DNA from: Porticoccaceae bacterium
GTDB taxonomy: Bacteria; Pseudomonadota; Gammaproteobacteria; Pseudomonadales; Porticoccaceae
Assembly: GCA_049890135.1 (NCBI GenBank)
Contig: JBMHCB010000006.1
Coordinates: 47,607 to 111,606, forward strand
DNA length: 64,000 bases
Direction: 5' to 3'
The translations under genes were made by a program, and so were the position numbers. Shown piece after piece: positions 4,373 through 51,240 of the stretch. Every line of letters begins with the position of its first letter. Within the stretch, counting starts at the first letter, position 1. Under the pieces are notes generated by a model, which saw only the letters and a list, made by a program, of their open reading frames with translations, did not search any database and was not told the DNA's origin.

Positions 4373-4384
4373 AGGACTTAGACA

Positions 4385-4666
4385 ATGGAAATTTTAATTT
4401 TACTACTCGCATTATTCGTATTGTCACTTTTTTTGGGGGTCGAGCTAATAGTAAAGGTTCCACCTACCTTGCATACGCCATTAATGTCTGGCACGAATGC
4501 CGTATCAGGTATTACCCTTGTAGGTGCACTTTTAGCGGCTGGATCAGACACAGCTCCCATGCTGGTTAATGTATTGGGCTTTTTGGCAGTTACCTTTGCC
4601 ACCATTAATGTAATTGGCGGCTATTTAGTGACTAACCGCATGCTCTCGATGTTTAAAAGGAAGTAA
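4385..4666 (+). CDS. pntAB: NAD(P) transhydrogenase subunit alpha part 2 (membrane dII-a)
   Basis: 93-aa, very hydrophobic ORF lying between pntAA and pntB with gaps of 12 and 3 nt. Confidence 0.85.
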   Translation: MEILILLLALFVLSLFLGVELIVKVPPTLHTPLMSGTNAVSGITLVGALLAAGSDTAPMLVNVLGFLAVTFATINVIGGYLVTNRMLSMFKRK

Positions 4667-4669
4667 GCT

Positions 4670-6115: not shown

Positions 6116-6119
6116 ATCC

Positions 6120-6611: not shown

Positions 6612-6663
6612 TATTGGCTACTCAGGTAATCTAAAAGGCTCTTAGAGAGCTTTATTGCTCAGT

Positions 6664-21811: not shown

Positions 21812-21824
21812 TCAAAACTCCCAG

Positions 21825-22757: not shown

Positions 22758-22775
22758 AGTTCCAGCTTTATCTAT

Positions 22776-34920: not shown

Positions 34921-34950
34921 AAAAAGGCCTTCCTTGTGGAGGCCTTTTTT
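34921..34950. terminator. Bidirectional terminator shared by tRNA-Pro and the convergent sulfatase gene
   Basis: AAAAAGGCCT (34921-34930), loop TCCTTGTGG, AGGCCTTTTT. The arms are perfectly complementary and A/T runs lie on both sides. Confidence 0.65.
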
Positions 34951-34987: not shown

Positions 34988-36427
34988 TTATAATGCCGGA
35001 TCGCTGGGGCACCGTCTATGAGAGAAGCCTTTGCGATCACACACAGCTAGCTCGCTTTTTATCCCCATATCACCTTGTTGATGCATCCATGTAGTTAGTT
35101 TTTGTTTTAACACAACCAGTTGTTTTTGATGCTGCGGCTGATTGATAATATTGATTCGTTCGAATGGGTCATTAACCATATCGTACAATTCATATTCTGG
35201 TCGTTGTAGATAGTTTGAAAAATTTTCTTTTCCCTGTTTTTTTTCAAGCGCAAGTTCTTCTTTAAACCATTTTCCTGCGGTTAAAATATTGGAGAAGCTA
35301 TTATTTGGCATTAAATTGTGGATTAGTTTAAGGCGTTTGGTGCGAACTGATCTTATGGGGTAGGGTGCTCCTTCATGAATGTTAAAGCTTGTTTGAATGC
35401 CATAAACATATTCTTTGTGTTCTGTTTTTTTGCCAATTAAAACCGATTTAAAGCTTTTTCCATCTAGATTTTTTGGCACTGTGTTACTCACTATATCAGT
35501 CAGTGTTGGAATGACGTCCACATATTCAATCATTGCGTTGCTGACGGAGTTTGGTTTTATATTATTTGGCCAGCGAACAATAAATGCTGTTTTTAGACCG
35601 TTGTCATAATTAGTCCACTTGGCAAATGGCAGAGCGCTGCCTTGCTCGCTGGTGAAAATAAAGATTGTGTCGTTTTTGATACCGAGTTTTTGAATTTCGG
35701 CTTCAAGCAAACCTACTTCGCGATCTAGGTCAGAGACTTCGGCAAGATATTTTGACAGTTGCTGACGCAGTGCTTTGGTATCATTTAAAAACTTTGGTAT
35801 CTGTAATTTATCCGGTGGATACTGCTTTGTATCTCCTCGACTCCAAGGGGTGTGGGGGTTTGCAGATGCAGCAACTAAGAAAAAGGGCTGAGTCTTATTT
35901 CGAGAGATAAATTTTCGGGTAGTTTCTATACCAAAGGAGGATTCTCCTGAGGCTTCTCTGTTTGGTTTGCCGACACGCTCAAATGGAAATGACTTTCCTG
36001 GAAAGATATGGCCCTTTCCAGCTAAGCCAACTCGATAGCCCAATGCTCTAAAGTAATGAGCGGCACTTTTTACCCCATCATAGACTCGAGTATGATTGCC
36101 GTAGGCCCCGTTGCGAATTGGGTAAATACCTGTATAAAGCTGCTGTCGGGTGACGCCACACATAGCTGTTGCGGTAAATGATTGGGTAAATAGCATGCCT
36201 TCTTTAGCTAGCTTATCAATATTAGGTGTAATGGCATTTTTAGGCGCATAGTCATAGAGTTGATGATAGGCGCCAATATCAAACCAATTTAAGTCATCGG
36301 CAAGAACAAGGATAATGTTGGGTGATTTGCTGGCTTCTGAGGGTTTTGCTGATAGAGAGTTATATGGCGTTAAAACAGCAATCAAAAGAAGTAAATTGGC
36401 CAATCTTTTTTGAAATTGATTCATCAT
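34988..36427 (-). CDS. S1-family sulfatase with an atypical CGVTR active-site motif
   Basis: 479 aa with a signal peptide, the metal-binding NIILVLADDL, and CGVTRQQLYTG in place of the canonical CxPxRxxxxTG. Confidence 0.88.
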   Translation of the reverse strand: MMNQFQKRLANLLLLIAVLTPYNSLSAKPSEASKSPNIILVLADDLNWFDIGAYHQLYDYAPKNAITPNIDKLAKEGMLFTQSFTATAMCGVTRQQLYTGIYPIRNGAYGNHTRVYDGVKSAAHYFRALGYRVGLAGKGHIFPGKSFPFERVGKPNREASGESSFGIETTRKFISRNKTQPFFLVAASANPHTPWSRGDTKQYPPDKLQIPKFLNDTKALRQQLSKYLAEVSDLDREVGLLEAEIQKLGIKNDTIFIFTSEQGSALPFAKWTNYDNGLKTAFIVRWPNNIKPNSVSNAMIEYVDVIPTLTDIVSNTVPKNLDGKSFKSVLIGKKTEHKEYVYGIQTSFNIHEGAPYPIRSVRTKRLKLIHNLMPNNSFSNILTAGKWFKEELALEKKQGKENFSNYLQRPEYELYDMVNDPFERINIINQPQHQKQLVVLKQKLTTWMHQQGDMGIKSELAVCDRKGFSHRRCPSDPAL

Positions 36428-36469: not shown

Positions 36470-37498
36470 CTATTTGAGTGTTTTAATTGATGTTGATTCG
36501 CGCATGATAATCTCAGTGGGAAGTAGTTCCATATTTGGATTTTCATCTGATTCCGCACGGCATTTTTCAATCAATATTTTTACCGCTGTCGCTGCCATTT
36601 CTTTGATCGGCTGACGAACAGTGGTCAGTTGAGGCCAGACAACAGTGGCTACTAAGCTATCGTCAAAACCAGCGATAGAGAGATCATCTGGTACTGAGAG
36701 TCCAGCTTTGTGAGCGGCGGCTATTAATGCTGCAGCCATTTCGTCATTGCTGGCAAAAATAGCGGTTGGTCGTTGGGGTTGCTTAAGCAGTTTTTCACCA
36801 GCAATTAGTGCAGATCGGTATTCAAAATTACCTTCCTGAATAAAGCTATCTGGAACGGACAGATTGGCGTCTTTCATCGCCGATAAAAATCCTTCTTGTC
36901 TTCGTCTGGTTGTTGCAGTTCCTTTGCGACCGGTAATAAAACCAATTGATGTATGGCCCAATTCAATCAGTTTTGTTGTCATTTCTTTTGCGGCTTGGTG
37001 GTCATTTATCTCAACACGAAGTCCCAGCTCCTCTGAGATACTTGGTGAGATTCTTGCAAATGGTTTACCCGCTGACATAAGGGCTTTCAGAATTGATGGC
37101 TCATCGCAGAGTGGGGGAGGCAGTATCATACCGTCTAAATTAGATTGAACTATAAGGTTATTAATGTCCTCTGTGATGGTGGCTGAGGATAAACTGACTG
37201 GCTCAACAATTAGGTGATAACCATCTTGCCGTGATTGCTCCATAGCTCCTTGTAATAACTCGACAATATAGCTTGCATTTGGGTTATCAAATATAAGGCC
37301 TAGCACATAGGAGCGAGAGCCAACAGCTGCTCTGGGTGCAACACTGGGTCGATAGTTTAGAGTTTTGATAGCTTCCTCAACCGCAGCTCTAGTTTTAGGG
37401 CTAACTTTTGGTTCCTTTCGGACCACACGTGAGGCAGTTTTAATGGAGACCTTTGCTAGTTTTGCTATATCACTAAGTGTTGATTTACTTTGGATCAT
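36470..37498 (-). CDS. LacI-family transcriptional regulator
   Basis: 342 aa with the N-terminal HTH STLSDIAKLAKVSIKTASRVV and a periplasmic-binding-protein-like sugar-binding core. It is divergent from the sulfatase at 37798. Confidence 0.9.
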   Translation of the reverse strand: MIQSKSTLSDIAKLAKVSIKTASRVVRKEPKVSPKTRAAVEEAIKTLNYRPSVAPRAAVGSRSYVLGLIFDNPNASYIVELLQGAMEQSRQDGYHLIVEPVSLSSATITEDINNLIVQSNLDGMILPPPLCDEPSILKALMSAGKPFARISPSISEELGLRVEINDHQAAKEMTTKLIELGHTSIGFITGRKGTATTRRRQEGFLSAMKDANLSVPDSFIQEGNFEYRSALIAGEKLLKQPQRPTAIFASNDEMAAALIAAAHKAGLSVPDDLSIAGFDDSLVATVVWPQLTTVRQPIKEMAATAVKILIEKCRAESDENPNMELLPTEIIMRESTSIKTLK

Positions 37499-37797
37499 TT
37501 CTTCCTCTGAATTTCTAAATATACACCAATAAAAAAACAGGTAGTTTTATTCGCTGTCTATTATGCAGTTATGTTCATTAAAATTAAAATTTAATAATAA
37601 TGTGAAGTGCTAATAATACATCAAGGTTCTTTTAGCGATTTTATTTGATAAATCTCGGTTGGCCATAAGGTTTCTAATTGCAGCGTTTGTAACTGCTGAT
37701 TTAGTATGATTAAACCCTAGATCCGCCTCTTTTCCCTTGATGATGACAATATAATCATTATAATCAAAAAATTAAATTTTAGGTAGGTCTTATTGCG

Positions 37798-39255
37798 ATG
37801 CAAAAGAATGTTATGGTTTTTGCGTTCTTGGTTTTGTCTGGGTTGCTGGTCAGTCTAGACCTGTATTCGGATATTCCGTTGCCTGCTAAAAAAAGTGATC
37901 GGCCGAATGTTTTATTTATTTCTGTCGATGATTTGCGCCCTGATATTGGTAGTTATGGTCATCCTGTTGCCAAAACTCCAAATTTGGATAACTTTTCTAA
38001 GTCTGCTGTGTTGTTTGAGCAAGCCTATACTCAACAGGCAGTTTGTGGTCCTTCTCGTGCTGCTTTGCTAACAGGATTAAGGCCCTCTACCACAGGGATT
38101 AAGCGTCTTGATCAAACTGTTTCAGGGACTTTGCCTAGCATTACAACAATGAATATGCTGTTTAAGCAAAGTGGTTATGAGACGGTATCTATTGGCAAAA
38201 TATACCATCATTTTAATGACGATGCCGATGGATGGTCTAAGCCGCCCTTTGATATTGCCTATGATGCTAGAAGAGACCGCAAAAAGCGCGGTTTGCCAAA
38301 TCCGCCTTATGATGTTTGGGCATCTGAAGAATTATTACCTGATGCTAAAAATGTTGCATATGCTGTCAATGAGCTTGAAAGGCTTAGTCGGCGAGATAAT
38401 CCTTTCTTTCTAGCCGTAGGCCTGCATCGTCCTCATCTACCTTTTAGAGCGCCTAAAAGTGATTGGGATAAATATGACCTAGAGAAGGTGCCATTGCCGA
38501 AAACAACAGAGCAGCAAATAGGTGCTCCAGATTGGGCGGTAGTTGCTTGGGAAATCTGGAACTATGATGACTTACCTCCAAAACCCGGCCCTATGCCGAA
38601 AGCAACAGGGGATCGGTTAAGGCATGGTTACCTAGCATCTGTTTCATTTGTTGATGGCTTGGTGGGACAGCTAATTGCAAAAATTTCGTCCTTAGGTTTG
38701 GATAAAAACACAGTCATTGTTATTTGGGGTGACCATGGGTTTAAGTTAGGTGATCATGGCGGTTGGTCTAAGCACTCAACAGTAGAGCTTGATATCCATA
38801 TTCCTCTAATAATTCGAGTGCCGGGCATGAAAACACCAGGTGCGCGAACGGATGCGCTGGTTGAAACGGTCGATATTTACCCAACACTTATTGATATTGC
38901 CGGCCTTGATCAACCACATGCTTTAGAGGGTATATCTTTAATGCCGCTTATTAATAAACCAGATCGTCCCTGGAAAGAAGCGGTTTTTGCTCAATTTCCT
39001 CGTTACGTTAAAAGACAGTTAGCAATGGGTGAGACTGTTCGAACTCATCGTTATCGATATACAGCATGGGTGGGAACTGCCAATGGCCAAATTATTGATC
39101 AAGAGCTTTATGATCATGAAAAAGATCCCATTGAATCGATAAATGTTGCTAAAAATACTGATTATCGTCTTGAGCTTGAGCGTCATGAAAAATTAAGAAA
39201 TGAGGGTTGGGGTAAGGTTCAAAAAGAATTGATAAAAAAGTTGACTCAAAAATAA
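37798..39255 (+). CDS. S1-family sulfatase (iduronate-2-sulfatase-like)
   Basis: 485 aa with a signal peptide, NVLFISVDDLR and the Cys-type motif CGPSRAALLTG. Confidence 0.9.
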   Translation: MQKNVMVFAFLVLSGLLVSLDLYSDIPLPAKKSDRPNVLFISVDDLRPDIGSYGHPVAKTPNLDNFSKSAVLFEQAYTQQAVCGPSRAALLTGLRPSTTGIKRLDQTVSGTLPSITTMNMLFKQSGYETVSIGKIYHHFNDDADGWSKPPFDIAYDARRDRKKRGLPNPPYDVWASEELLPDAKNVAYAVNELERLSRRDNPFFLAVGLHRPHLPFRAPKSDWDKYDLEKVPLPKTTEQQIGAPDWAVVAWEIWNYDDLPPKPGPMPKATGDRLRHGYLASVSFVDGLVGQLIAKISSLGLDKNTVIVIWGDHGFKLGDHGGWSKHSTVELDIHIPLIIRVPGMKTPGARTDALVETVDIYPTLIDIAGLDQPHALEGISLMPLINKPDRPWKEAVFAQFPRYVKRQLAMGETVRTHRYRYTAWVGTANGQIIDQELYDHEKDPIESINVAKNTDYRLELERHEKLRNEGWGKVQKELIKKLTQK

Positions 39256-39295: not shown

Positions 39296-39682
39296 ATGAA
39301 AAAACATATTAAACTTTCCTGTCTTTTATTTGTTCCAATTGTCTGTACTGCCGAATCTAAAGAGGCCTGGCAAGCGTTCGATAAGAATAAGGATAATGCC
39401 TTAACCATAGCTGAATTCGCTAATTATAAAGCAGATCAATATGCTGATTTAGATGTGAGTGGTGATGGAAAATGGTCAAAATCAGAATTTGTTAAAGGGC
39501 TCAGAGATATGAAGGATATGGACCCACATTGGCTTAGAGAAAAATTTAGACGTTTTGATAAAGACGATAATGGTATTTTGACAATAGAAGAAGCTGAAAA
39601 AGAAATTGCAGTAAACTTTAAATGGTTAGATAAAGACAAGAGTAAAACAATTACTAAAAAAGAGATGCCAAAAAAGTTCTAG
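39296..39682 (+). CDS. Secreted four-EF-hand calcium-binding protein
   Basis: 128 aa with a signal peptide (LFVPIVCTAES) and four canonical 12-residue EF loops: DKNKDNALTIAE, DVSGDGKWSKSE, DKDDNGILTIEE and DKDKSKTITKKE. Confidence 0.8.
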   Translation: MKKHIKLSCLLFVPIVCTAESKEAWQAFDKNKDNALTIAEFANYKADQYADLDVSGDGKWSKSEFVKGLRDMKDMDPHWLREKFRRFDKDDNGILTIEEAEKEIAVNFKWLDKDKSKTITKKEMPKKF

Positions 39683-39952: not shown

Positions 39953-42826
39953 ATGAAGTGCAATATCTCAAAGATTTTTATATCAATAATTACAACGTTT
40001 AGTCTTATCTTGTTGAGTACTTCTGCTATGTCAGAAGAAGCTAAGCAGGATGGCAAGATTGTTGATGAGTCTGTCGACGAGGTCATCGTATTTGGAATTC
40101 GTAGAAGTCTTGAAACTGCCCTAGAAGCAAAGCGTGAGATATCTAACTTAACCGAAGTCATTAATGCAGATGATATCGGTAAACTTCCCGATGAAAATAT
40201 CGCAGAGGTTCTTGAAAATATTCCTGGTGTGCAAATTGATCGATCGGGCGGTATCGGCTCTAATGTTTCTGTGCGTGGCAGTACCCAAAATCGGGTTGAG
40301 ATAAATGGTCGAAGCACCACGCCATCAAAAGATGCTCGCGGCGGCATAAGTTTCTCTGACTTGCCTTCTAGCTTAGTTCGCTCTCTTAATGTGGTAAAAG
40401 TACCAACAGCAGATATGGTTGAGGGGTCGCTTGGTGGTACGGTTAATGTTAAGACGTATCGTGGCCTTAAACTTAAGAAGCCTTTACGCGTTGTGCGTGG
40501 TGTTTCTGAATATGCGGAAAATGCTGATAAATGGAATGAGAACTTTTCTGGCACCTATGGGAATAAATTTTCGACAAGCAACGGCGATGTTGGCGTTATT
40601 TTGAATTTGTCACACTTTGATAAATTTGTTCGCGAAGACCAACTGCGTGTTACCCCGGGTATTCGTCAATCTTCACAGAGTGAGATTGATTTTGACGGTG
40701 ATGGAACTAATGACCCATATTATAAACCTGGTTTTAGTGATCTTGAATTTGGCTTGCAAAATCGTGTTAATACCGCCTTCTCTGGTTCTCTTGAGTGGCA
40801 AGTAGATAATAATTTCAAGCTATACAGCGAAGGGTCATTCACTGACTTAAACCAACAAAGTCTAAAGCAGTCTGCCTTTATTGGAACAGCGGCTTCAGAT
40901 ATCGAGCTAGATGATCCTAATGCTATATTTAAGATGGTTGAAGTTGCGGGCTATCCAGTGTCAATGCTTACATCTGGTATTGTTGGTGGCGGTATTAGAA
41001 ATGGTCGTGTTGACTTACCTTCTGATAATGCAGAGCCTAATGATGGGGTTCAAATTCGCTCTAATAACAAAGCGGGTAATCGTGATACTCAGTCTTATGT
41101 TGCAGCTATTGGTGGTGAGTGGGATACGGATAATTTGAATATTGTTGCTGAGTTGAGTGCTGCTGGCTCAGATTCAGTCGAAACAGCCTTTGTTACGGTT
41201 ATGCAGTTTAATGATCCCACTTCAGCAAATTTCCATAGTTTGGGTGCAAGATTACGCGTTCCTTTCTTCTACTCGCTTGATGGTGATGTTATAGAGTACG
41301 GCCCCTATGCCAATACTGTTAGTAGTGAGCAGCTACTTGATCCTAGTTATTGGTCTATGTATTTAACCAAGGATCAGGATTTCTTTTATAATAATAAAGA
41401 GCTTGCGCAAAAAGTTGATGCCACTTGGTTTGTAGATAATGATTTTTGGACAACCATTAAAGCGGGGGTTCGCTTAACTCAGCGATCGAGTGATAGATCG
41501 CGTCAATCACAGCAAACTCAACCTTGGCCAGGGTTTTCAGGAACAGATCTTGAAAACTACTTACTAGCCACTCCGGGTGATTTTTTTAGTTTCAATAATG
41601 ATGGAAGCTATTTAGATGATTTCCTCACGCTAGACCCCAAAAAGGTCCACAGACAACGCGATGAACTTCGCGAGATGTTCGCGCTGGATGAATCGGGGGT
41701 TATTGATCCGTTACAGGGTTTTGGAGTTGAAGAGGATACAGCCGCACTTTATGTTCGCGGTGACTTTGATGCGATGATTTTTGGTATAGAGGGAAGGGGG
41801 AATATTGGTATACGTGGCGTAAATACCGATCAGGTTGCCAGTGGCAGTGAAGTGATGCCAGACGGCTCCTTACGTGATGTCTCATACACACAAAATTATA
41901 CTAATTATCTGCCAAGTGCCAGTTTGGTTTTGGCGCCTAAAGAAAAAATTCAAATTAGATTTGGGTATGCCGACATTATGCGTCGTCCAAATTTTAGCGA
42001 TCTTTCACCTACGGTTCAGTACCCCCTCAATATCGGACAAGCGGTCAATGTAGGTGACCCCACGTTAAAGCCAACTAAGGCTAAACAATTTGACGCGACT
42101 TTAGAGTATTACTTCCGTAAGGGCAGTGTTGCAAGTCTGGGGTATTACCACAAGAAATTAGAAAGCGTTATTGGTAAGGAGACTAGATGGAACAGTATCT
42201 GTAATCCTCGAGCAGAAGACCCCTATGCGGATGTGCCTGAATTGGCCGCTATGACCTGTACTATTGATGGATTGGATGGTGTGATGGTGAATAGAATTTC
42301 ACCGGTAAACCTTCCAGGTGGCAGTATTGAAGGGTTAGAGTTGTCCTTTTTACATTACTTCCGCAATATACCCAAACCCTTTAGAGGTCTGGGTATTATT
42401 GCAAATTATGCCTATCAAAAGGGTGATCGCGACCAAACCTTTGCAACTCCTGCGTTTTTAAGAAATGATGGTGAGGCTCAAGAGTTTCCGCTTAACTTTG
42501 TACGACTATCTGAGAATTCTTACAACTTCACTGTTTTTTATGAAAGATACCGTTTGAATGCCCGCCTGAGATATACCTACCGAGATAATTTTTTGCTCTC
42601 GGAGTCCATTGATATAGCTAATGGTCAACCTCTATATACTGAGGACAGAGGACAGCTTAATGGCTCTCTATCTTACAAAATTGATAAAACATTTGCGGTT
42701 ACCTTAAGTGGCGTTAATCTTTTGAAATCACGCAAATCAAATCCGGGTGTTTTTGCTGAAGGACCACTCGCCAGAATGTCAGATTCCGATCGTAGAATAT
42801 CTTTAGGTTTGAGGGCGAAATTTTAG
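39953..42826 (+). CDS. TonB-dependent outer-membrane receptor
   Basis: 957 aa with a signal peptide, the TonB box DEVIVFG, a plug domain (NIPGVQIDRSGG...VSVRG), a long beta-barrel and a C-terminal ...LGLRAKF ending in Phe. A GGAG sits 8 nt upstream of the ATG. Confidence 0.92.
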   Translation: MKCNISKIFISIITTFSLILLSTSAMSEEAKQDGKIVDESVDEVIVFGIRRSLETALEAKREISNLTEVINADDIGKLPDENIAEVLENIPGVQIDRSGGIGSNVSVRGSTQNRVEINGRSTTPSKDARGGISFSDLPSSLVRSLNVVKVPTADMVEGSLGGTVNVKTYRGLKLKKPLRVVRGVSEYAENADKWNENFSGTYGNKFSTSNGDVGVILNLSHFDKFVREDQLRVTPGIRQSSQSEIDFDGDGTNDPYYKPGFSDLEFGLQNRVNTAFSGSLEWQVDNNFKLYSEGSFTDLNQQSLKQSAFIGTAASDIELDDPNAIFKMVEVAGYPVSMLTSGIVGGGIRNGRVDLPSDNAEPNDGVQIRSNNKAGNRDTQSYVAAIGGEWDTDNLNIVAELSAAGSDSVETAFVTVMQFNDPTSANFHSLGARLRVPFFYSLDGDVIEYGPYANTVSSEQLLDPSYWSMYLTKDQDFFYNNKELAQKVDATWFVDNDFWTTIKAGVRLTQRSSDRSRQSQQTQPWPGFSGTDLENYLLATPGDFFSFNNDGSYLDDFLTLDPKKVHRQRDELREMFALDESGVIDPLQGFGVEEDTAALYVRGDFDAMIFGIEGRGNIGIRGVNTDQVASGSEVMPDGSLRDVSYTQNYTNYLPSASLVLAPKEKIQIRFGYADIMRRPNFSDLSPTVQYPLNIGQAVNVGDPTLKPTKAKQFDATLEYYFRKGSVASLGYYHKKLESVIGKETRWNSICNPRAEDPYADVPELAAMTCTIDGLDGVMVNRISPVNLPGGSIEGLELSFLHYFRNIPKPFRGLGIIANYAYQKGDRDQTFATPAFLRNDGEAQEFPLNFVRLSENSYNFTVFYERYRLNARLRYTYRDNFLLSESIDIANGQPLYTEDRGQLNGSLSYKIDKTFAVTLSGVNLLKSRKSNPGVFAEGPLARMSDSDRRISLGLRAKF

Positions 42827-42827
42827 A

Positions 42828-44528
42828 ATGATGATTGAGTCGCAAACATTCTGGCGCTGTTTTAGGACGGTTTTTGTTGCTGGCATTATGCTGGTTTTCC
42901 ATTCTATCGCGATTTGCAAGCCAATAGATTATTTTGTCAGTTCGTCAGAAGGCAATGACAAAAATAACGGTCTGTCTGAAAATAGTCCTTGGGCCACCTT
43001 AAAAAGAGTTAAAAAACAAAAGTTGCAGCCTGGAGATACGGTTCACTTTAAATCAGGTGACTTGTTTAAAGGGCAGCTTGTGGTTGACGAGTCTGGAACT
43101 GTAGAGGCTCCAATTCACTTCACAGCTTATGGCGATGGTGATTTGCCCATTATTGATGGTGCCGCCTTAGTTAGAGGTGCTTCACTTGCGGCCATTTTAG
43201 TAATAGATCAGGATCACCTTGAATTTAGTAAATTGAATATAAGAAACTTTCGCAAAAAGTCACGTGATTCTGTATCAGATTATGATGCTTTTGGCATTCT
43301 TGTAAAGAATACAGGCAAGCGAAATTTACGCGGATATAACCTTCATGATCTAGTGGTTGAAGAGGTTTTTCCAGTAAGAGCAAGAGCAATTAACAATAAA
43401 TCTGGTGAAAATTCTTTTAATAAGACACAAGTTTCGGGTATTCGTTTTGAGACCCTTCCTATTACATCTATAGATCAAGCTTTTAATACTGGAGATATCT
43501 ACATTCATGGTAATTTCTTGCGCTATACCGCTAGGTTTGGTATCGCTATTCGTCACAGGTCGTCAAAAATTGAAAGCATTATTGGTACATCGGCAAATTA
43601 CGATACTAATGTTCGCATTATAAATAATCGCTGCGAAGATACTGGCGGCAGCTGTGTATTAATGAGTGGCGTTATGAATGGGCTTCTCGAAAAAAATAGC
43701 TTTATTCGTTCCGGCGCCATGGTTGAGCCGGAACTATCTGTCAATCGAGGCAGTGGTGCATGGTTCTTTGGCAGTAAAAATATTGTTGCTCAGAAAAATT
43801 TTTCTTATGGCTCTCGGGGGCATAATGATTCTGCAGGGATGCACGTTGATTATGGTAATGAGAATGTACTTGTTCAGTATAACTTCACACTGATGAATGA
43901 AGGTTATGGTACGGAAATTCTGGGTAAAAATAAGAATATTATTTGGCGGCATAATATTAGTGTTCATGATGGGACTAGAGTTGTTGGTGTTGCTCGGCCA
44001 GAAGGCGGCAAAAGTATATTTCCGGGTAAAACCATCCATGTGAGTAACTTTTCTGTTCCTAAGCGAATTAAATCAGAGGGTGTTTATATTTATAACAATA
44101 CCTATGTTATTGCCAGTGACTCAGAGCCATTAATTGGCTTTATAGGTAAGGATATGCATCTTTGGAATAATATTTTTGTGGTTGAGGATGGTGGCTTATT
44201 GGCCAAAAATCTTAAAGCCGGATGGTCTAGAAAAAAGGACTTGGAAATAAGGGGTAATGTTTTTTCTGGGAATATATCAAAGAACTTTATTGACTCTGAT
44301 TTAAGTTCAACAATTTCTAAGATTAAATTTGAAGGTAATATAGGTAGTCCAGCGACTTACGCAGTGGCCCCCTCGGCAATAAAAAGTAATCATGATTTAA
44401 AAATAAGTCATCCCCGTTTTCCTTCTGCTGGAAAGGGGATTTTTAAACATATTTCTGAAATACCACAATTCGATATATTTGGTAATGCTTTAGATTCTGA
44501 AATTGCCTCATATGGTGCAGGGTACTAA
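42828..44528 (+). CDS. Secreted right-handed parallel beta-helix repeat protein (unassigned; candidate glycan-active enzyme)
   Basis: 566 aa. After a hydrophobic leader, the N-terminus has YFVSSSEGNDKNNGLSENSPWATLKRV...LQPGDTVHFKSGD, which is typical of pectate-lyase-fold proteins. Then come repeated short N/G/I/V-rich coils (IINNRCEDTGG, NIVAQKNFSYG, NVLVQYNF, IIWRHNISVHDG, IYNNTY, LWNNIF). The ATG lies 1 nt after the TBDR stop. Confidence 0.72.
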   Translation: MMIESQTFWRCFRTVFVAGIMLVFHSIAICKPIDYFVSSSEGNDKNNGLSENSPWATLKRVKKQKLQPGDTVHFKSGDLFKGQLVVDESGTVEAPIHFTAYGDGDLPIIDGAALVRGASLAAILVIDQDHLEFSKLNIRNFRKKSRDSVSDYDAFGILVKNTGKRNLRGYNLHDLVVEEVFPVRARAINNKSGENSFNKTQVSGIRFETLPITSIDQAFNTGDIYIHGNFLRYTARFGIAIRHRSSKIESIIGTSANYDTNVRIINNRCEDTGGSCVLMSGVMNGLLEKNSFIRSGAMVEPELSVNRGSGAWFFGSKNIVAQKNFSYGSRGHNDSAGMHVDYGNENVLVQYNFTLMNEGYGTEILGKNKNIIWRHNISVHDGTRVVGVARPEGGKSIFPGKTIHVSNFSVPKRIKSEGVYIYNNTYVIASDSEPLIGFIGKDMHLWNNIFVVEDGGLLAKNLKAGWSRKKDLEIRGNVFSGNISKNFIDSDLSSTISKIKFEGNIGSPATYAVAPSAIKSNHDLKISHPRFPSAGKGIFKHISEIPQFDIFGNALDSEIASYGAGY

Positions 44529-44532
44529 GGCC

Positions 44533-46077
44533 ATGAATACAAGAAACAGCAGGGTTCAAGATATGCATACTCAAACGATGGCTTTGGGTTTTTTTCGTAG
44601 GCCTTCTTTAGTTATATGCCTAGCCCTAGTGGCTTTATTCATTGCGCTAGTGACAGCCTGTTCCTCAAAGCCTATGAGTAGTGTTGTTAAGGAGACTATA
44701 AAGTCACCTAATTTTATAGTTATCCTAGCCGATGATTTAGGCTGGAGTAGCTTATCTGCTTCGATGGATAAAAATTACCCAAACGCAAAGAGTGACTATC
44801 ATAAAACACCCAATATTGACGCCATAGTAGAAGGTGGTATGCGCTTTTCCAGTGGCTATGCTGCCGCTCCTGTTTGCTCTCCAACGCGTTACAGTATTCA
44901 ATTTGGTAAATCGCCTGCGCGCTTAAAGCGCACCAGGGTTTTGGGTAAGAGTCATGTTGATCACAATCAGGTTGGTATCCCCCAAGTGCTTAAATCTATC
45001 GATAAGTCTTATCGTGCCGCCCACATAGGTAAGTGGCATATCGACAAAGATCCATCTGCTTATGGTTATGACGTTCACGATGGTATGACTAAAAACAAAG
45101 AGGGTGATTTTGATAATAATCAGACTCAATGGCATGGTTATTCTGATGAGGATCCAAAGCGAGTCAATTCAATGACCAAGCGCGCTGTAGAATTTATGCG
45201 CGAATCAGTTGAGCGAGAACAACCTTTCTTTCTTCAGCTCTCTCATTATGCTGTGCACTCGAACATTGTATACAGCGATGCATCATACGCTGGAGTAGGG
45301 AAGCGCGATAAAGGTAAGTTGCATAAGAACCAAGGTTATGCGGCTATGTTAGAAGATATGGATTTATCCATTGGTTCTTTACTTGAGGCGTATACTGAGC
45401 TTGATCTTGCGAAAAACACCTATATCATTTTTCTTTCAGACAACGGTGGCATGCCAGTACTCCCAATGCAGGTCAACAGAGGTAGACCCTATCGTGACGG
45501 GCTAAACTCGCCGCTTCTTCGTGGCAAATGGGATCTTACGGAAGGTGGCATTCGGGTTCCATTTGCAATTACTGGACCTACTATTAAAGCCGGTGGACAA
45601 AGTGATACGCCGGTTATGAGTTATGATATTTTGCCTACCGTTGCTGACCTTGCTGGATCGCAGAAGGGGTTACCTAAAAACCTTGATGGGGTAAGTTTCA
45701 AGCCACTATTTGAAGATCATAAGGCAGATTTAAATCGTCCTTTTGATGGTCTTGTATTCCACTTTCCACATTACAACAGGGTAGGTATGAATGAGCCGCA
45801 TTCAGCAATTAGGTATAAAAATTTCAAGTTAATCCATTTTCCAGCCTCTGGCCGCAATTTACTCTTTGATCTAGCAAAGGACCCTGGTGAGCTTGTTGAT
45901 CTATCTAAAAAGATGCCAAAAATGGTTGAATCATTGAACATCAAGTTAGATGCCTATCTTACGTCAGTTGACGCCGAGTTACCTGAAGACGCTGGCAGTT
46001 GGAAGAGAGTAGGGAACAATGGAAAAGTGAGAACTAAATTTTTTAAACGCTATGACCGTATTTTACAGGACAAGTAA
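44533..46077 (+). CDS. S1-family sulfatase, predicted lipoprotein
   Basis: I chose the start at ATG 44533, 4 nt after the upstream stop and preceded by AAGG. It has the lipobox LVTAC, NFIVILADDLGW and the Cys-type motif CSPTRYSIQFG. Confidence 0.88.
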   Translation: MNTRNSRVQDMHTQTMALGFFRRPSLVICLALVALFIALVTACSSKPMSSVVKETIKSPNFIVILADDLGWSSLSASMDKNYPNAKSDYHKTPNIDAIVEGGMRFSSGYAAAPVCSPTRYSIQFGKSPARLKRTRVLGKSHVDHNQVGIPQVLKSIDKSYRAAHIGKWHIDKDPSAYGYDVHDGMTKNKEGDFDNNQTQWHGYSDEDPKRVNSMTKRAVEFMRESVEREQPFFLQLSHYAVHSNIVYSDASYAGVGKRDKGKLHKNQGYAAMLEDMDLSIGSLLEAYTELDLAKNTYIIFLSDNGGMPVLPMQVNRGRPYRDGLNSPLLRGKWDLTEGGIRVPFAITGPTIKAGGQSDTPVMSYDILPTVADLAGSQKGLPKNLDGVSFKPLFEDHKADLNRPFDGLVFHFPHYNRVGMNEPHSAIRYKNFKLIHFPASGRNLLFDLAKDPGELVDLSKKMPKMVESLNIKLDAYLTSVDAELPEDAGSWKRVGNNGKVRTKFFKRYDRILQDK

Positions 46078-46121: not shown

Positions 46122-48437
46122 ATGAAAAATGTATATTCCCTATCAATACTGACTATTGGAATTTTCACTTCAATTATTTCGTATTCTTCAGAGCCCTACA
46201 AGAATCCTGATCTCTCTGATGGGGCCCGTGTTGATGATTTGCTGTCAAGAATGACACTAATCGAAAAAGTTGGGCAGATGTCACAGTTTGTCGGTCCCGA
46301 GCATATAGCCCGCTCAGAAAAAAATATGACCATTGAAGAAATGCAGGCTGGTGATACGTTTGGGATTTATCCGAATTTACACTCTTCCCAAATTCCAGAT
46401 GTTATTAAAAAAGGAAGGGTAGGATCGTTCTTGCATGTGAAAAATCCTAAAGAAGCTAATTTTCTTCAGAAGCATGCTATTCAAAGTCGCCTTGGAATTC
46501 CGCTTTTAATAGGTATTGATGCAATTCATGGTAATGGCTTAGTAAAAGGGGCGACAATATACCCATCGCCAATCACCATGGCTAGTAGTTGGAATCTTGA
46601 CCTTGTTGAGCAAGCCAGCATTCAAACTGCAAAAGAGGTGAGGGCAAACGGCGCTCACTGGGCGTTTACTCCAAATATTGACATTGCAAGAGATGCGCGC
46701 TGGGGAAGAGTGGGTGAAACCTTTGGCGAAGATAAATTTCTTGTCTCTGAAATGGGCGTTGCGGTTATTAATGGTTTACAGCAGGGCGATTTTTCAAGCG
46801 ATACCAGTGTTCTTGCAACAGCAAAGCACTTTGTAGCGGGTAGTGATCCAATAAATGGACTTAATTTATCGCCTATGGATGTGTCAATTCGGTCTCTGCG
46901 AGAGGATTATTTCCCGCCTTTTGAACGGGCAATTGATGCCGGCGTTTTCACTTTAATGGCAGCGCATAATGAGGTAAATGGTGTACCAGCTCATGGTAAT
47001 CGTTTTTTATTAACCGAAGTGCTTCGAGATGAATGGAATTTCAAAGGGTTCGTGGTGAGTGACTGGTTGGATGTTGAGCGATTAAAAACTTATCATCGGA
47101 CAGCGCCAACGTTTAAAGAAGCGGTTTATCAAAGTGTTGATGCGGGAATGGATATGCATATGCATGGGCCAAAATTTTTAATGCCACTTGTAAGGTTGGT
47201 AAAACAAGGTCGAATTCCTGAATCAAGAATAGACGATGCGGTAAGACCAATACTGTTGGCTAAGTTTCGTTTGGGACTTTTTGAGAACCCTTTTGTCGAT
47301 TTATCCGATGCCAAGAAGCTAATGTTCAATAAAGATCATAAGCAAACGGCACTTGAGCTCGCCAGACAAGGTATTGTATTGCTTAAAAACTCGGACAAAA
47401 TTCTGCCTTTATCCGATGAAAAGCGTATCTTTATTACCGGACCCAATGCTAATAATCATTCGATTATGGGTGACTGGGTATTGCCACAACCAGAAGAAAA
47501 CATCACCACCATTGTCGAGGGCCTAAAAGAGGTAGCTAAGAGTTCGACCAAGATCGATTATTTTGATTTAAAAGGTAGCGTAAGAAGGATTCATTCTGAA
47601 CAAATTTTGAAAGCGGCTAAAAAGGCTAAGTCTGCTGATGTAGCCATTGTGGTAGTAGGCAGCAACCCTTTGAGATATGACAGAAAGGGTAAAACATCTG
47701 GAGAAAATGTTGCTCGTAGTTCTATAGGACTATTTGGTAACCAATTAGAGTTGGTGAGGGCTATTCAGGCATCTGGAACACCAACGATCGTTGTTCTTAT
47801 TAATGGCAGACCTCTCGCAGAGCCTTGGATTGTTGAGAATGTTGACGCTCTGATTGAAGCTTGGGAACCGGGTGCAATGGGCGGTAAAGCCTTAGCAGAA
47901 ATTGTATTTGGTGATGTTAATCCCAGCGGAAAACTACCGATTACAGTTCCATACAGTGTTGGGCATATGCAGGCTATTTATAATCATAAACCAAGCGCTT
48001 TAGTCAGAAAATATGCAGATGCACCTACTCATAACCTCTATGAATTTGGATATGGCTTAAGTTATTCTGAGTTTGAATATAATAATGTCAGATTATCCAA
48101 GTCTAAGATTGAAAATAATGAATCAACACAGCTTTTTGTGACTGTCAAAAATACAAGCCAGTATGCGGGTGATGAAATTGTTCAGCTCTATATTCGCGAC
48201 AAATTTTCACAAGTCACAAGACCTGTGAAAGAGTTAAAAGGATTTAAGCGAATATCATTAAAACCCGGTGAAGAGCGTGTGGTAAATTTTGCTATTACTC
48301 CAGATATGCTTGCCTATTATAATTTGAAGATGAATTGGGTTACAGAGCCTGGCGATTTTAGAATTATGGTTGGCGGTTCGTCTCGTAAAAGCGATTTAAA
48401 ATCAGTTAAGCTAAAAGTTAAAAAAACTAACAACTAG
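46122..48437 (+). CDS. Glycoside hydrolase family 3 (BglX-like beta-glycosidase)
   Basis: 771 aa with a signal peptide, LIEKVGQM, IDAIHGN, the nucleophile motif GFVVSDW and a C-terminal fibronectin-like domain. Confidence 0.92.
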   Translation: MKNVYSLSILTIGIFTSIISYSSEPYKNPDLSDGARVDDLLSRMTLIEKVGQMSQFVGPEHIARSEKNMTIEEMQAGDTFGIYPNLHSSQIPDVIKKGRVGSFLHVKNPKEANFLQKHAIQSRLGIPLLIGIDAIHGNGLVKGATIYPSPITMASSWNLDLVEQASIQTAKEVRANGAHWAFTPNIDIARDARWGRVGETFGEDKFLVSEMGVAVINGLQQGDFSSDTSVLATAKHFVAGSDPINGLNLSPMDVSIRSLREDYFPPFERAIDAGVFTLMAAHNEVNGVPAHGNRFLLTEVLRDEWNFKGFVVSDWLDVERLKTYHRTAPTFKEAVYQSVDAGMDMHMHGPKFLMPLVRLVKQGRIPESRIDDAVRPILLAKFRLGLFENPFVDLSDAKKLMFNKDHKQTALELARQGIVLLKNSDKILPLSDEKRIFITGPNANNHSIMGDWVLPQPEENITTIVEGLKEVAKSSTKIDYFDLKGSVRRIHSEQILKAAKKAKSADVAIVVVGSNPLRYDRKGKTSGENVARSSIGLFGNQLELVRAIQASGTPTIVVLINGRPLAEPWIVENVDALIEAWEPGAMGGKALAEIVFGDVNPSGKLPITVPYSVGHMQAIYNHKPSALVRKYADAPTHNLYEFGYGLSYSEFEYNNVRLSKSKIENNESTQLFVTVKNTSQYAGDEIVQLYIRDKFSQVTRPVKELKGFKRISLKPGEERVVNFAITPDMLAYYNLKMNWVTEPGDFRIMVGGSSRKSDLKSVKLKVKKTNN

Positions 48438-48491: not shown

Positions 48492-50099
48492 ATGCATATA
48501 TTTTCCTCAACACATAAAAGTTGGACTAAAGTGATAAAATTCATATTAGCCATTGTTTGTGCTAATTCTCTATTATTTTTCGCTAGCAATTCGGTTGCTA
48601 AAGAGCCACTTAATGTCATTTATATCCTAACGGATGATCAAAGATACGACGCTTTGGGTTTTATGAACCCTGAAGTTGATACGCCACATATGGATAAACT
48701 TGCAGAAAGAGGTGTGCATTTCAAAAATAGCTTTGTGACAACAGCACTTTGTTCGCCAAGTCGAGCGTCTATTTTAACTGGGCAATATATGCATACCCAT
48801 GGGGTGGTTGATAATAACAAGCCAGCTAAGGAAGGAACCATCTACTTCCCAAGTTACTTACAGCAGGTTGGTTATGAAACCGCTTTCTTTGGTAAATGGC
48901 ATATGGGCGGTCATCACGATGATCCTCAGCCTGGCTTTGATCATTGGCTTAGTTTTGCTGGTCAGGGAGATTATTATCCTGTCCGTAAGCATGGTGGCGG
49001 ATTCAGTCGTTTTAATATCAATGGTAAGCGTGTTAAGCAAAAAGGTTACATAACAGATGAGCTTACAGACTATACATTGCAGTGGCTAACTGCCGAGCGA
49101 GATAGCAGAAAACCTTTCTTTGTGTATCTATCACACAAAGCAGTTCATGCCAATTTTGATCCGGCCAAGCGCCATAAAGACCAATACAGTGATGTTGAAA
49201 TTAAAGTACCTGCTAGTCAGGCCGATACCCCAGAAAATTACAAAGGCAAACCAATGTGGGTTAAAAATCAGCGCAATAGCTGGCATGGCGTTGATTTCCC
49301 TTACCACAGTGACTTAAATGTTACTGAATATAAGCGGCAATATAACCGCGCCCTTTCAGCAGTAGATGACAGTCTTGGTAGAATTACAGCTTGGTTGAAA
49401 GCCAATAACCTTGATCACAATACAGCAGTAATTCTTATGGGTGATAATGGCTTCTTATTCGGTGAACATGGGCTGATTGACAAGCGAAATGCTTACGAGG
49501 AATCTATGCGTGTTCCTCTGGTTGCTTACATACCGGGCGCCAAGCAAAATTATGTTGTTGAAGAGATGGCCGCTAATATTGATATTGCGCCTACGATTCT
49601 TGATATCGCAGGTATCAAGGAGCAACCGCCACAATTTGTTGGTTCGAGCTTATTACCACTAGCCAAGGGTGAAGTCGTTAATGATTGGCGCGATAATCTA
49701 CTCTATGAATATTATTGGGAATTTAACTTTCCGCATACGCCAACAACATTAGCTATTCGCTCGGATGATTTTAAGCTAATTCAATATCATGGTGTATGGG
49801 ACACGGATGAGCTTTTTGATTTAAAAAATGATCCTAAAGAAATGAATAACCTTATCGATGATCCTCGCTATTTAAAAATTAAAGTTGAATTGCGCAAGGC
49901 TTTGTTTGCTCGTTTAGCTGAAGATGGTGAGCATTCTGTTCCCTATACAAAGAAATTTAGTCGCGGTGCGGTGTTGCGTCATGGCGATCGTTCAAAAGCT
50001 GCCGAATTTCCAGATGATTGGTTGCGACAAGGGAATGAAAAGGATCTGAGAAAGTTTTTCACGCCTGATGATAGGCGATTAAAGCGCGGTAATGATTAG
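48492..50099 (+). CDS. S1-family sulfatase (N-acetylglucosamine-6-sulfatase-like)
   Basis: 535 aa with a signal peptide, NVIYILTDDQRYD and the Cys-type motif CSPSRASILTG. Confidence 0.9.
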   Translation: MHIFSSTHKSWTKVIKFILAIVCANSLLFFASNSVAKEPLNVIYILTDDQRYDALGFMNPEVDTPHMDKLAERGVHFKNSFVTTALCSPSRASILTGQYMHTHGVVDNNKPAKEGTIYFPSYLQQVGYETAFFGKWHMGGHHDDPQPGFDHWLSFAGQGDYYPVRKHGGGFSRFNINGKRVKQKGYITDELTDYTLQWLTAERDSRKPFFVYLSHKAVHANFDPAKRHKDQYSDVEIKVPASQADTPENYKGKPMWVKNQRNSWHGVDFPYHSDLNVTEYKRQYNRALSAVDDSLGRITAWLKANNLDHNTAVILMGDNGFLFGEHGLIDKRNAYEESMRVPLVAYIPGAKQNYVVEEMAANIDIAPTILDIAGIKEQPPQFVGSSLLPLAKGEVVNDWRDNLLYEYYWEFNFPHTPTTLAIRSDDFKLIQYHGVWDTDELFDLKNDPKEMNNLIDDPRYLKIKVELRKALFARLAEDGEHSVPYTKKFSRGAVLRHGDRSKAAEFPDDWLRQGNEKDLRKFFTPDDRRLKRGND

Positions 50100-50139: not shown

Positions 50140-51102
50140 ATGAAATCACCATTTAAGCTTACGTTAGTAATTACGGTTACTGCTTTTTCTGCTGGTTGCA
50201 GTAAAAATATTGAGCCTATGGTGTGTTTATCCGATTTAGATGCCGCCGCTACACAAGATATTAATGGTGGTCAGTTTAGTTTTGGCGAAAATCGATATTA
50301 TGCCAATGAGAAACCGGTCCAATTAATTGAGGTTAAAGATTTTAATATTGATCGTGCAGAAGTGACTAATCGGGAGTTTCAAGCGTTTGTTGAAGCCACC
50401 GGTTATGTGACTGATGCAGAACGAGGTCTTTCTGAAAAAGAGTTTCCAAATGTACCAGCAGAATTTCGTGTTCCAGGTTCAATGGTGTTTGTTTCGCCAG
50501 ATTCCGAACAAAAAAATGCATCTGCTTGGTGGCAGTTTATAGCCGGTGCTAACTGGCGACATCCCTTAGGACCAAATAGCTCTATTGACGGCAAAGATGC
50601 TTTCCCTGTAGTTCAAGTGACCTATGATGATGCCTTAGCCTATGCCAATTGGATTGGACGAAGATTGCCCACTGAAGCGGAGTGGGAGTATGCATCCAGA
50701 GGTGGATTAGAGCGTGCATCATATTCATGGGGAGAAGAACCACCTCATCAAGGTATATCCAAAGCCAATACTTGGCAGGGAAATTTCCCTTTCAATAATA
50801 TGAAAGAAGATGGCTTTGTGGGTAGTTCGCCTGTTGGTTGTTTTCCTGCAAATGGATATGGTTTGTATGATATGACAGGAAATGTATGGGAATGGACTGA
50901 AACTGCCTATGGTCCCGATCATCAAAGAGATTATGGTCAGAAGGGCTATGACCCTCTACAACCAGGCATAGAAGTAAAAACCCTGAAAGGCGGGTCTTTT
51001 TTATGTTCAGATAACTACTGTCAGCGTTTCCGTCCTGCATCTAGGCAGGGACAGGATCTTACTGTTGCCACATCACATATAGGCTTTAGGACCGCAAAAT
51101 AG
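50140..51102 (+). CDS. Formylglycine-generating enzyme (SUMF1/FGE family), predicted lipoprotein
   Basis: 320 aa with the lipobox FSAGC, the motifs RLPTEAEWEYASRGG and GNVWEWT, and the catalytic Cys pair in GGSFLCSDNYCQRFRPASR. Confidence 0.9.
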   Translation: MKSPFKLTLVITVTAFSAGCSKNIEPMVCLSDLDAAATQDINGGQFSFGENRYYANEKPVQLIEVKDFNIDRAEVTNREFQAFVEATGYVTDAERGLSEKEFPNVPAEFRVPGSMVFVSPDSEQKNASAWWQFIAGANWRHPLGPNSSIDGKDAFPVVQVTYDDALAYANWIGRRLPTEAEWEYASRGGLERASYSWGEEPPHQGISKANTWQGNFPFNNMKEDGFVGSSPVGCFPANGYGLYDMTGNVWEWTETAYGPDHQRDYGQKGYDPLQPGIEVKTLKGGSFLCSDNYCQRFRPASRQGQDLTVATSHIGFRTAK

Positions 51103-51205: not shown

Positions 51206-51240
51206 CAAAAAAATGGCCGCATTAGCGGCCATTTTTATTT
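51206..51240. terminator. Bidirectional rho-independent terminator between the FGE gene and the convergent repeat-protein gene
   Basis: ATGGCCGC (51213-51220), loop ATTA, GCGGCCAT (51225-51232), with an A7 run before and a T-run after. Confidence 0.7.

Follow-up and report, generated by a model that had tools for sequence, protein, structure and literature searches.

Which enzyme cuts the glycan in a locus that carries four sulfatase genes, and what might that glycan be? The question is raised by a 64,000-nucleotide stretch of DNA from a Porticoccaceae (SAR92-related) metagenome-assembled genome (MAG), contig JBMHCB010000006.1, positions 47,607 to 111,606, which we refer to in its entirety as the window. 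Between about 35.0 and 53.8 kb, the window holds a polysaccharide utilization locus (PUL) in which a 566-aa protein is encoded between a TonB-dependent receptor (TBDR) and a sulfatase. A first-pass annotation, made from the sequence alone, could place this protein in no named CAZy family and offered it as a candidate new glycan-cleaving family; a confident match to a characterized CAZy family was the finding that it named as speaking against this proposal. Such a match exists. On sequence and model grounds, the protein is a distant but clear, divergent relative of glycoside hydrolase family 136 (GH136) and not a new enzyme family, since sequence, family profile and structure all point to GH136 and both catalytic aspartates are kept. 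Within the GH136 lineage, it falls in a large clade whose members are mostly marine. For the locus as a whole, we consider it likely that the protein is a GH136-like retaining β-glycosidase acting on a sulfated glycan, exported by the Sec pathway and encoded in an operon with the TBDR, sulfatases and a family 3 glycoside hydrolase (GH3).

A GH136-like β-helix protein

The gene spans 42828..44528 (+) with an ATG start in the open reading frame (ORF) list of the window, and its translation opens with MMIESQTFWRCFRTVFVAGIMLVFHSIAICKPIDYFVSSSEGNDKNNGLSENSPWATLKRVKKQKLQPGDTVHFKSGD. The TAG stop of the TBDR gene occupies 42824–42826, leaving a gap of 1 nt; the TAA stop of the gene itself (44526–44528) is followed by ggcc and the ATG of the next sulfatase gene, sulfatase C, at 44533, a gap of 4 nt. 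The stop and start positions thus bear out the tight packing described earlier. The longest mechanical ORF for sulfatase C begins at a TTG at 44503 and overlaps the GH136-like gene. A 100% identical protein is deposited at NCBI as MGC6480838.1, from a Porticoccaceae MAG.

Residues 1–30 (42828..42917, +), MMIESQTFWRCFRTVFVAGIMLVFHSIAIC, form the hydrophobic leader that had been noted at the N-terminus, modeled by AlphaFold2 (AF2) as a helix over residues 3–27 at lower predicted local distance difference test (pLDDT) scores. No residue in this region reaches a majority consensus in the family alignment. The residue at −1 to Cys30 is an isoleucine, which does not make a classical lipobox; the leader is a probable Sec signal peptide with an inferred cleavage site. 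Directly after it comes the N-terminal β-helix cap, residues 33–110 (42924..43157, +), with the motif YFVSxxGxDxNxG...PW..L...PGD. The signature YFVSxxGxDxNxG...PGDTVxFxxG on which the fold had been recognized is present in the translation, as DYFVSSSEGNDKNNGLSENSPWATLKRV...PGDTVHFKSGD. The cap matches the LnbX model NF047897 over residues 33–109 and the GH136 structures over residues 34–110. The AF2 model, computed on a 27-sequence alignment (A1), has a pLDDT of 91.6 and a predicted template modeling (TM) score of 0.90, and its short stacked strands from approximately residue 70 to 480 build the right-handed parallel β-helix that had been predicted, a fold also backed by Foldseek.

A single-protein phmmer search against all PDB sequences returned GH136 lacto-N-biosidases only, at E-values of 5.6e-16 to 5e-12 (6kqs at 5.6e-16, 5gqc at 3e-14, and also 7v6m, 24mr and 7v6i), with matches to the N-terminal cap and, as a second stretch, to residues about 222–432. 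The family profile built from the 27 aligned homologs of A1, which reach down to 30% identity, raised the same five GH136 sequences to 5.9e-54 (6kqs), 3.4e-53 (7v6m), 1.3e-48 (5gqc), 3.4e-46 and 1.6e-45; profile positions 19–468 align to residues 12–508 of 5gqc, which is nearly its full length. The next profile match was the alginate lyase 6kfn at 1.8e-7, confined to the N-terminal cap, as were other weak matches to the alginate-lyase β-helices 7o84, 7o7a and 7o78. Structural comparison gave the same picture. Ranks 1–6 of the Foldseek search against the PDB were all GH136 (E 9e-19 to 2.6e-14, TM 0.52–0.66), with TM scores of 0.64–0.66 to 7v6m, 7v6i and 5gqc, and only after a gap did GH120 XylC and the helices of polysaccharide lyase (PL) families PL6 and PL9 follow at 5e-7 or weaker. 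This is the comparison to lyase and hydrolase helices that the first-pass annotation had proposed as a check. Sequence similarity along the GH136 catalytic module, an LnbX-like fold and the catalytic aspartate pair are thus all found in the 566-aa protein.

Catalytic residues

In ErLnb136 of Eubacterium ramulus, the acid/base is D568 and the nucleophile D575 (Pichler et al. 2020, PMC7335108); the chain index used by HMMER is offset by +2 from the numbering of that paper, such that W548 of the paper is W550 of the chain. Aligning the 566-aa protein to ErLnb136 and to LnbX of Bifidobacterium longum located a putative catalytic motif, D334-S-A-G-M-H339-V-D341, at 43827..43850 (+). Here, the query segment ‘HN-D334-SAGMHV-D341-YG’ lies opposite ‘NQ-D-SMAWDA-D-SG’ of ErLnb136 and ‘NG-D-GQAWDA-D-YG’ of LnbX. 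D334 aligns to the acid/base D568 and D341 to the nucleophile D575, the two being seven residues apart; we take the corresponding pair of LnbX to be D411/D418. From the alignment, D334 is most likely the acid/base and D341 the nucleophile of the 566-aa protein.

Conservation was queried over every GH136-like ORF from 87 related loci, 94 unique sequences of 25–82% identity with paralogs included. D334 and D341 are present in 94/94, as are W312, N324, G331, Q350, N352, R374, S378, D381, R384 and Y422-N423-N424; besides the catalytic pair, about 15 polar residues around it are invariant over the set in all, and H339 is found in 93 of the 94. Because the aspartate pair and the polar residues surrounding it are invariant, the protein is more plausibly an active enzyme than a binding scaffold, and the non-catalytic adhesin that had been named as an alternative is not borne out.

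Relatives and gene order in other genomes

A scan with a single genome for each GTDB species turned up relatives in 298 genomes, from which the best 80 loci were taken. Among these, the relatives at 50–82% identity come from Porticoccaceae/SAR92, Cellvibrionales, Halieaceae and Alteromonadaceae; those at 31–38% come from Carboxylicivirga, Labilibacter, Marinilabilia, Saprospiraceae, Balneolales and Novosphingobium, and also from Microbulbifer agarilyticus, Flammeovirga pacifica, Reichenbachiella and Pontiella sulfatireligans. Locus contents were compared by BLAST of the locus ORFs against the window proteins for 83 loci, 38 at ≥49% identity and 45 distant.

A sulfatase accompanies the GH136-like gene in 63/83 loci. 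In the clade at ≥49% identity, 30 of the 38 loci have one, in 26 cases no more than 300 bp away from the GH136-like gene, and most follow the order TBDR, GH136-like gene, sulfatase C, usually continued by the GH3 and sulfatase D. The TBDR/GH136-like/sulfatase order recurs across Porticoccaceae, Halieaceae and Alteromonadaceae, and the position at the heart of an operon that had been assigned to the glycan-cleaving candidate is one that its relatives in these families share. The distant clade has sulfatases in 33/45 loci, at a mean of 2.1 per locus, and tandem GH136-like paralogs in nine; these relatives lie in SusC/D-type PULs with GH2 β-galactosidases, hybrid two-component system (HTCS) regulators and esterases. 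The conserved neighboring glycosidase is GH3 in Gammaproteobacteria and GH2 in Bacteroidota. LacZ-type GH2 (22 loci), HTCS regulators, SusC/SusD, PfkB kinase, a six-hairpin glycosidase and SASA esterases are the commonest other neighbors, and the Novosphingobium locus adds GH16. Some relatives bear type IX secretion system (T9SS) tails (Bacteroidota) or a PF02922 domain (CBM48-type; CBM, carbohydrate-binding module), as is expected for polysaccharide-acting enzymes.

The family is larger than these loci. At E ≤ 1e-30, an exhaustive profile search of a protein library recovered 2,540 clusters (50% identity), among which multidomain proteins are numerous. Among the library representatives are giant proteins with 2–10 GH136-like stretches (P0241, P0247, P0296 and P0337), for example P0241 with three in 6046 aa, and one of 4240 aa with ten. 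Paralogy also occurs within loci. Seven gammaproteobacterial loci (within L012–L020, e.g. L013 and L015) encode a second, divergent GH136-like paralog at 31–34% identity to the query; it precedes the main TBDR/GH136-like/sulfatase block by a few genes and lies upstream of LacI/TBDR. Both catalytic aspartates are kept in these second paralogs as well as in the tandem pairs of the nine distant loci, which suggests sub-functionalized specificities.

A subclade of 700–715-aa paralogs in SAR92/Porticoccaceae (P0059–P0097; loci L004/L005, L033, L036, L037 and L044) is 54–57% identical to the query over 75% of its length, with an extra N-terminal region and, in a few members, PF02922; a TBDR precedes the paralog in L033 and L037. 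In 11 loci (L001/L002, at 4906–6870, L023, L028–L031, L034, L038, L041 and L043), the EF-hand gene (or LacI) is separated from the TBDR by the gene for a 650–870-aa protein with Big_2 and Lcl_C domains. The window lacks this gene and has only a 270-nt gap between EF-hand gene and TBDR. The locus L003, with a 51%-identical homolog, encodes next to the operon of that homolog an SGL lactonase, an IlvD-type gene, an FAH protein, an SDR oxidoreductase, a second GH3 and an SSF symporter (3784–6600 and 17162–21686). The IlvD-type protein resembles L-arabinonate/xylonate dehydratases at 842 bits, just below the cutoff of 882, and the FAH protein resembles 2,4-didehydro-3-deoxy-L-rhamnonate hydrolase, a diketo-deoxy-aldonate hydrolase. 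The set may represent a non-phosphorylative (oxidative) pentose/6-deoxyhexose route and hint at the released monosaccharide; being found in one locus only, it was set aside as evidence on the substrate.

Composition of the locus

The operon reads rightward from sulfatase B (37798..39255, +), whose best PDB matches are 6hhm at 1.3e-89 and human iduronate-2-sulfatase at 2e-65, and which is presumably S1_7-like. It is followed by a 128-aa secreted EF-hand calcium-binding protein (39296..39682, +) with EF-hand Pfam matches and a signal-like N-terminus. This small protein is a conserved member of the locus, with a tblastn match in 16/87 loci, there beside a locus sulfatase. In NCBIfam it comes closest to lanmodulin, at a score far under the cutoff, and a possible role is the provision or buffering of Ca2+ for the S1 sulfatases. 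With 500 bits to TIGR01782 (cutoff 310), the TBDR (39953..42826, +) falls in the TonB-Xanth-Caul subfamily; its Plug and barrel domains are both recognized. Behind the GH136-like gene, sulfatase C (44533..46077, +; Pfam Sulfatase and SGSH_C) has as its best solved relative 9fo1 (E 1.9e-66), deposited as ‘k-carrageenan sulfatase S1_16’, and then GalNAc-6-sulfatases. The BglX-type GH3 exo-glycosidase (46122..48437, +) has the Pfam GH3 N and C domains and an Fn3-like domain; its NCBIfam matches all lie under equivalog cutoffs, and its best PDB matches are the β-xylosidases 7zb3 and 8c7f at about 1e-145, then β-glucosidases. Sulfatase D (48492..50099, +) is closest to the mucin-desulfating sulfatase 7p24 (1e-77), the GlcNAc-6-sulfatase 5g2v and the exo-L-Gal-6-sulfatase 7lha, and we take it to be S1_11-like. 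A formylglycine-generating enzyme (FGE), the sulfatase maturase, completes the run (50140..51102, +; PF03781, 253 bits).

On the reverse strand lie a divergently transcribed LacI-family regulator (36470..37498, −; Pfam LacI and Peripla_BP_3), conserved in related loci, and the fourth S1 sulfatase, sulfatase A (34988..36427, −; Pfam Sulfatase and SGSH_C, with NCBIfam arylsulfatase-like matches below cutoff). By their nearest solved relatives, the locus sulfatases resemble enzymes for 2-O, 4-O and 6-O sulfate. A consensus scan placed the best promoter-like site of the locus at 37737-37764, upstream of sulfatase B, and a second one upstream of the TBDR gene. The same scan found strong hairpins at 34921-34949 and 51209-51236 that bracket the locus, the latter (51209..51236, +) being a terminator-like hairpin after the FGE gene with a 12-bp stem and a T-run, and it found no strong terminator inside 37.8–51.1 kb. 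The flanks are housekeeping genes, with threonyl- and phenylalanyl-tRNA synthetases upstream and zinc-related genes downstream. Farther upstream, at 16886–23729 (−), is a Bat ‘aerotolerance’-like cluster (BatD/VWA/TPR/DUF58/MoxR-type AAA) that has no relation to the PUL.

The remaining gene of the locus, divergently oriented, encodes an 845-aa protein (51287..53824, −) with four tandem β-sandwich (CBM-like) modules. It has a partial DUF7728 match in Pfam, no NCBIfam match and no PDB sequence match. Alignment (A2) resolved four repeats of ~125 aa with the consensus ...DGxSSQxxQTLxINVTxLPxGGANYRVYKTTANG...NTITVxAVxFDRTVKxQFSS.... The AF2 model has an N-terminal helix, four β-sandwich domains at pLDDT about 90 and, past the repeats, about 190 likely disordered residues of very low pLDDT, then a helical tail modeled with low confidence. 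Foldseek returned CBM22, CBM51 and Cry jelly-rolls, all at low TM. Its homologs have the repeat core in common, and proteins of other marine bacteria carry this core in fusion with Glyco_hydro_cc, CBM6 or T9SS tails; in locus L035, a relative adjoins the GH136-like gene. Judged from these models, the protein is probably glycan-binding and not an enzyme, and its repeat may constitute an undescribed carbohydrate-binding module family. A reading of it as a hidden second depolymerase was rejected, the protein being a tandem CBM-like array without an enzyme-like fold. As the 845-aa protein looks glycan-binding, the GH136-like protein and the GH3 are the only recognizable glycosidases of the locus. 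The first-pass annotation had credited the rest of the locus with a GH3 and sulfatases only; the GH3 and four sulfatases stand, and the LacI regulator, the EF-hand protein, the FGE and the 845-aa protein have to be added.

Proposed function and alternative readings

Taken together, a working model for the locus emerges. The TBDR would handle a sulfated glycan or oligosaccharide substrate and would be co-transcribed with the GH136-like gene. The GH136-like protein, probably periplasmic, would hydrolyze this substrate by a retaining mechanism in which, as in LnbX and ErLnb136, one aspartate (D341) is the nucleophile and the other (D334) the acid/base, and its presumed exo (biosidase-like) action would release short, probably disaccharide-sized, fragments. 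The four S1 sulfatases, matured by the operon FGE, would then remove sulfate from the fragments, and the GH3 exo-glycosidase would presumably take them apart last, with the LacI repressor controlling the operon. The substrate is most likely a sulfated algal sugar chain. Since the tight embedding among TBDR, sulfatase and GH3 genes is conserved across Porticoccaceae, Halieaceae and Alteromonadaceae, the GH136-like protein is very probably the key glycan-cleaving enzyme of the locus.

Several observations weigh against this model. Identity to the solved GH136 enzymes is only about 20–22%, and no curated model of Pfam or NCBIfam reaches its cutoff on the 566-aa protein: the Pfam search that had been recommended returned Beta_helix (PF13229) alone, at 24.1 bits below the gathering cutoff of 25.9, a family for which many homologs do have a precomputed match, and the NCBIfam LnbX match is restricted to the N-terminal cap and far under cutoff. 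H339 stands where the aligned GH136 sequences have an aspartate, two residues ahead of the nucleophile. The 700–715-aa paralogs lie outside any PUL in L004/L005 and L036, beside ZnuA/ABC zinc-transport genes. The neighbors give no coherent substrate, the GH3 being ambiguous between β-xylosidase and β-glucosidase and the sulfatase relatives acting on different sugars.

The missing partner also counts on this side. Characterized GH136 enzymes need an α-helical component, which can be a subunit of its own (LnbY, RhLnb136_I) or be built in as an N-terminal domain (ErLnb136_I); in ErLnb136, GH136_I wraps the helix and provides Y145 near the +1 subsite, and its authors consider it compulsory for activity (PMC7335108). 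In the 566-aa protein, the β-helix cap comes directly after the leader, leaving no N-terminal GH136_I domain, and a scan of nearly all ORFs of ≥150 aa in the locus and the 64-kb window, each of which matched an unrelated family, gave no LnbY/GH136_I gene or domain; a partner might be encoded elsewhere in the genome. With no partner in the window, the surroundings of the active site must differ from those of the characterized enzymes. The placement of the protein suggests that GH136_I is not universal in GH136; dependence on it is a trait of the characterized gut enzymes and not a formal CAZy criterion.

How the protein acts and on what can be read in other ways. We regard it as unlikely, if worth serious consideration, that it is an endo-acting depolymerase, secreted or surface-exposed, which cuts a sulfated polymer to oligosaccharides for import by the TBDR. 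It is the only long-groove β-helix enzyme of an operon that has no other endo-type GH or PL, the 845-aa neighbor looks like a binding array and not an enzyme, and relatives include Bacteroidota proteins with T9SS tails, some proteins with PF02922, and many long multidomain members of the library. GH136_I helps close the ErLnb136 active site, so that its loss could leave an open cleft. Yet the characterized GH136 enzymes are all exo-biosidases, and a plain Sec leader without a lipobox would by default, in a gammaproteobacterium, point to a periplasmic location downstream of the TBDR. It is improbable, in turn, that the protein is an ordinary GH136 lacto-N-biosidase to which the known specificity would essentially carry over, with Gal-β-1,3-GlcNAc/GalNAc-type disaccharides as products and, as substrates, (sulfated) glycans of type-1, mucin- or keratan-like kind from marine animals or algae. 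Its closest relatives are GH136 enzymes, and the catalytic pair is conserved; the relatives of sulfatase D are GlcNAc-6- and mucin-desulfating, and those of sulfatase C include GalNAc-6-sulfatases, besides the kappa-carrageenan enzyme 9fo1. Distant relatives keep company with GH2 β-galactosidase (22 loci) and GH16 (Novosphingobium), a set that resembles those for sulfated poly-LacNAc or keratan-type chains. All this has to be set against an identity to the lacto-N-biosidases of just about 20%, a window without a GH136_I partner, and an operon without Pfam-recognizable GH20 or GH2, GlcNAc catabolic genes or lacto-N-biose (LNB) phosphorylase. The sole other GH of the operon is a BglX-type GH3 closest to β-xylosidases and β-glucosidases, and the hosts are free-living bloom-associated plankton.

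Two further readings would take the protein out of hydrolysis altogether. A polysaccharide lyase or other non-hydrolytic β-helix enzyme (PL6/PL9-like, C5-epimerase) on a sulfated uronic-acid polymer could draw on the weak cap matches to alginate-lyase β-helices (6kfn at 1.8e-7; 7o84, 7o7a and 7o78), on the PL6 and PL9 entries that Foldseek lists at 1e-6 to 1e-4, on the iduronate-2-sulfatase among the relatives of sulfatase B, and on a PfkB kinase that recurs in some distant loci. We give it very little credence: the PL matches of Foldseek stand at 6e-7 or weaker with low TM (0.3–0.5, at most 0.55), at least 7 orders weaker than the weakest GH136 match, the conserved motif is the GH136 Asp-x6-Asp pair, and the locus has no GH88/GH105 unsaturated uronidase and no KduI/KduD genes. 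Scarcely any credence, and if anything a shade less, goes to a non-catalytic β-helix, be it adhesin, surface glycan-binding protein or TBDR accessory. The gene does come directly after the TBDR gene, much as a SusD-like binding protein gene follows SusC in Bacteroidota PULs, SusC/D are present in distant loci, and no curated family model reaches cutoff; the homology to active enzymes is nonetheless full-length, and the catalytic pair and about 15 polar residues are invariant in 94 sequences down to 25% identity. We rejected the lyase, epimerase and adhesin readings because the GH136 Asp pair is invariant and a wide gap separates the structural scores of GH136 from those that follow. The preferred explanation remains a GH136-like retaining β-glycosidase on a sulfated glycan.

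A bolder extension, which we hold tentatively and think somewhat more apt to fail than to hold, is that the clade forms a functionally new, chaperone-independent branch of GH136 that cleaves a highly sulfated phytoplankton glycan with only two linkage types. Two glycoside hydrolases and four distinct sulfatases in one conserved module would fit a heavily sulfated backbone of repeating disaccharides with few linkage types, although we advance this as speculation.

Implications and comparison with known systems

SAR92/Porticoccaceae and Halieaceae are abundant in the response to phytoplankton blooms, and most of their TonB-dependent transporter loci are without a predicted substrate (PMC8371827). 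The locus described here is of a compact type, with one TBDR, one GH136-like protein, one GH3 and four sulfatases, that is kept across several gammaproteobacterial families, and relatives of the enzyme occur in sulfatase-rich PULs of Carboxylicivirga, Flammeovirga, Reichenbachiella and Pontiella. The GH136 placement and the catalytic residues turn a ‘hypothetical beta-helix protein’ into a concrete, testable enzyme, and would extend GH136, known only from gut milk- and mucin-glycan metabolism, to the turnover of marine sulfated glycans. The novelty lies in the partner-less architecture of the clade, the H339 change in the motif and the sulfatase-linked marine context. Were the clade indeed a new chaperone-independent branch, the gene would be a specificity determinant, and a marker and probe for the glycan in SAR92, Halieaceae and Bacteroidota bloom responders.

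Beyond a remark on an ‘enigmatic’ PUL, literature searches gave no characterized marine or sulfated-glycan GH136 and no description of the present SAR92 locus, and a survey of bloom-associated gammaproteobacteria that covers 22 SAR92 species (PMC8371827) does not mention a GH136 locus of the TBDR/GH3 type. Papers based on dbCAN assign proteins from sulfatase PULs of marine Bacteroidota to GH136; one is PMC9723794, and another lists GH136 in a marine Bacteroidetes genome. A PUL of Winogradskyella forsetii with dbCAN-annotated GH136 genes and sulfatases was called ‘enigmatic’, with no substrate named (PMC9723794). It is like the present locus in being marine and in combining GH136 with sulfatases, and unlike it in being a Bacteroidota SusC/D locus; Winogradskyella was not among the best 80 loci of our genome scan. 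More distant in kind are the β-helix lyases (alginate lyases, chondroitinase B, Pel9A and rhamnogalacturonan lyase) and the GH120 β-xylosidase XylC, which share the general architecture and the cap motif with the 566-aa protein and are far weaker Foldseek matches to it (E 5e-7 to 1e-4, TM 0.3–0.5).

The closest known systems are LnbX of Bifidobacterium longum (5gqc), ErLnb136 of Eubacterium ramulus (6kqs/6kqt), TnX (7v6m) and BsaX (7v6i). With these lacto-N-biosidases, the 566-aa protein has in common the β-helix module, the cap motif, the Asp-x6-Asp pair and the flanking ‘G-x-W’ ... ‘QYN’ ... ‘RxNxS’ framework, and it shares with 7v6m a C-terminal ‘D-x-F-G-N ... IGA’ motif. It differs from them in its low identity of about 20–22%, in having no LnbY/GH136_I and in carrying H339 for Asp. 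The characterized GH136 enzymes covered by our literature searches all act on human milk oligosaccharides or mucin-type glycans (PMC7335108 among others), and in milk-oligosaccharide pathways GH136 stands with ABC transporters and GH112/GH42, whereas the present gene, from a marine gammaproteobacterium, shares its locus with a TBDR, four sulfatases, an FGE and a GH3. Given the marine host and the sulfatase/TBDR/GH3 coupling, lacto-N-tetraose is almost certainly not the substrate, and the release of lacto-N-biose from human milk oligosaccharides for which GH136 is known almost certainly does not transfer to the 566-aa protein.

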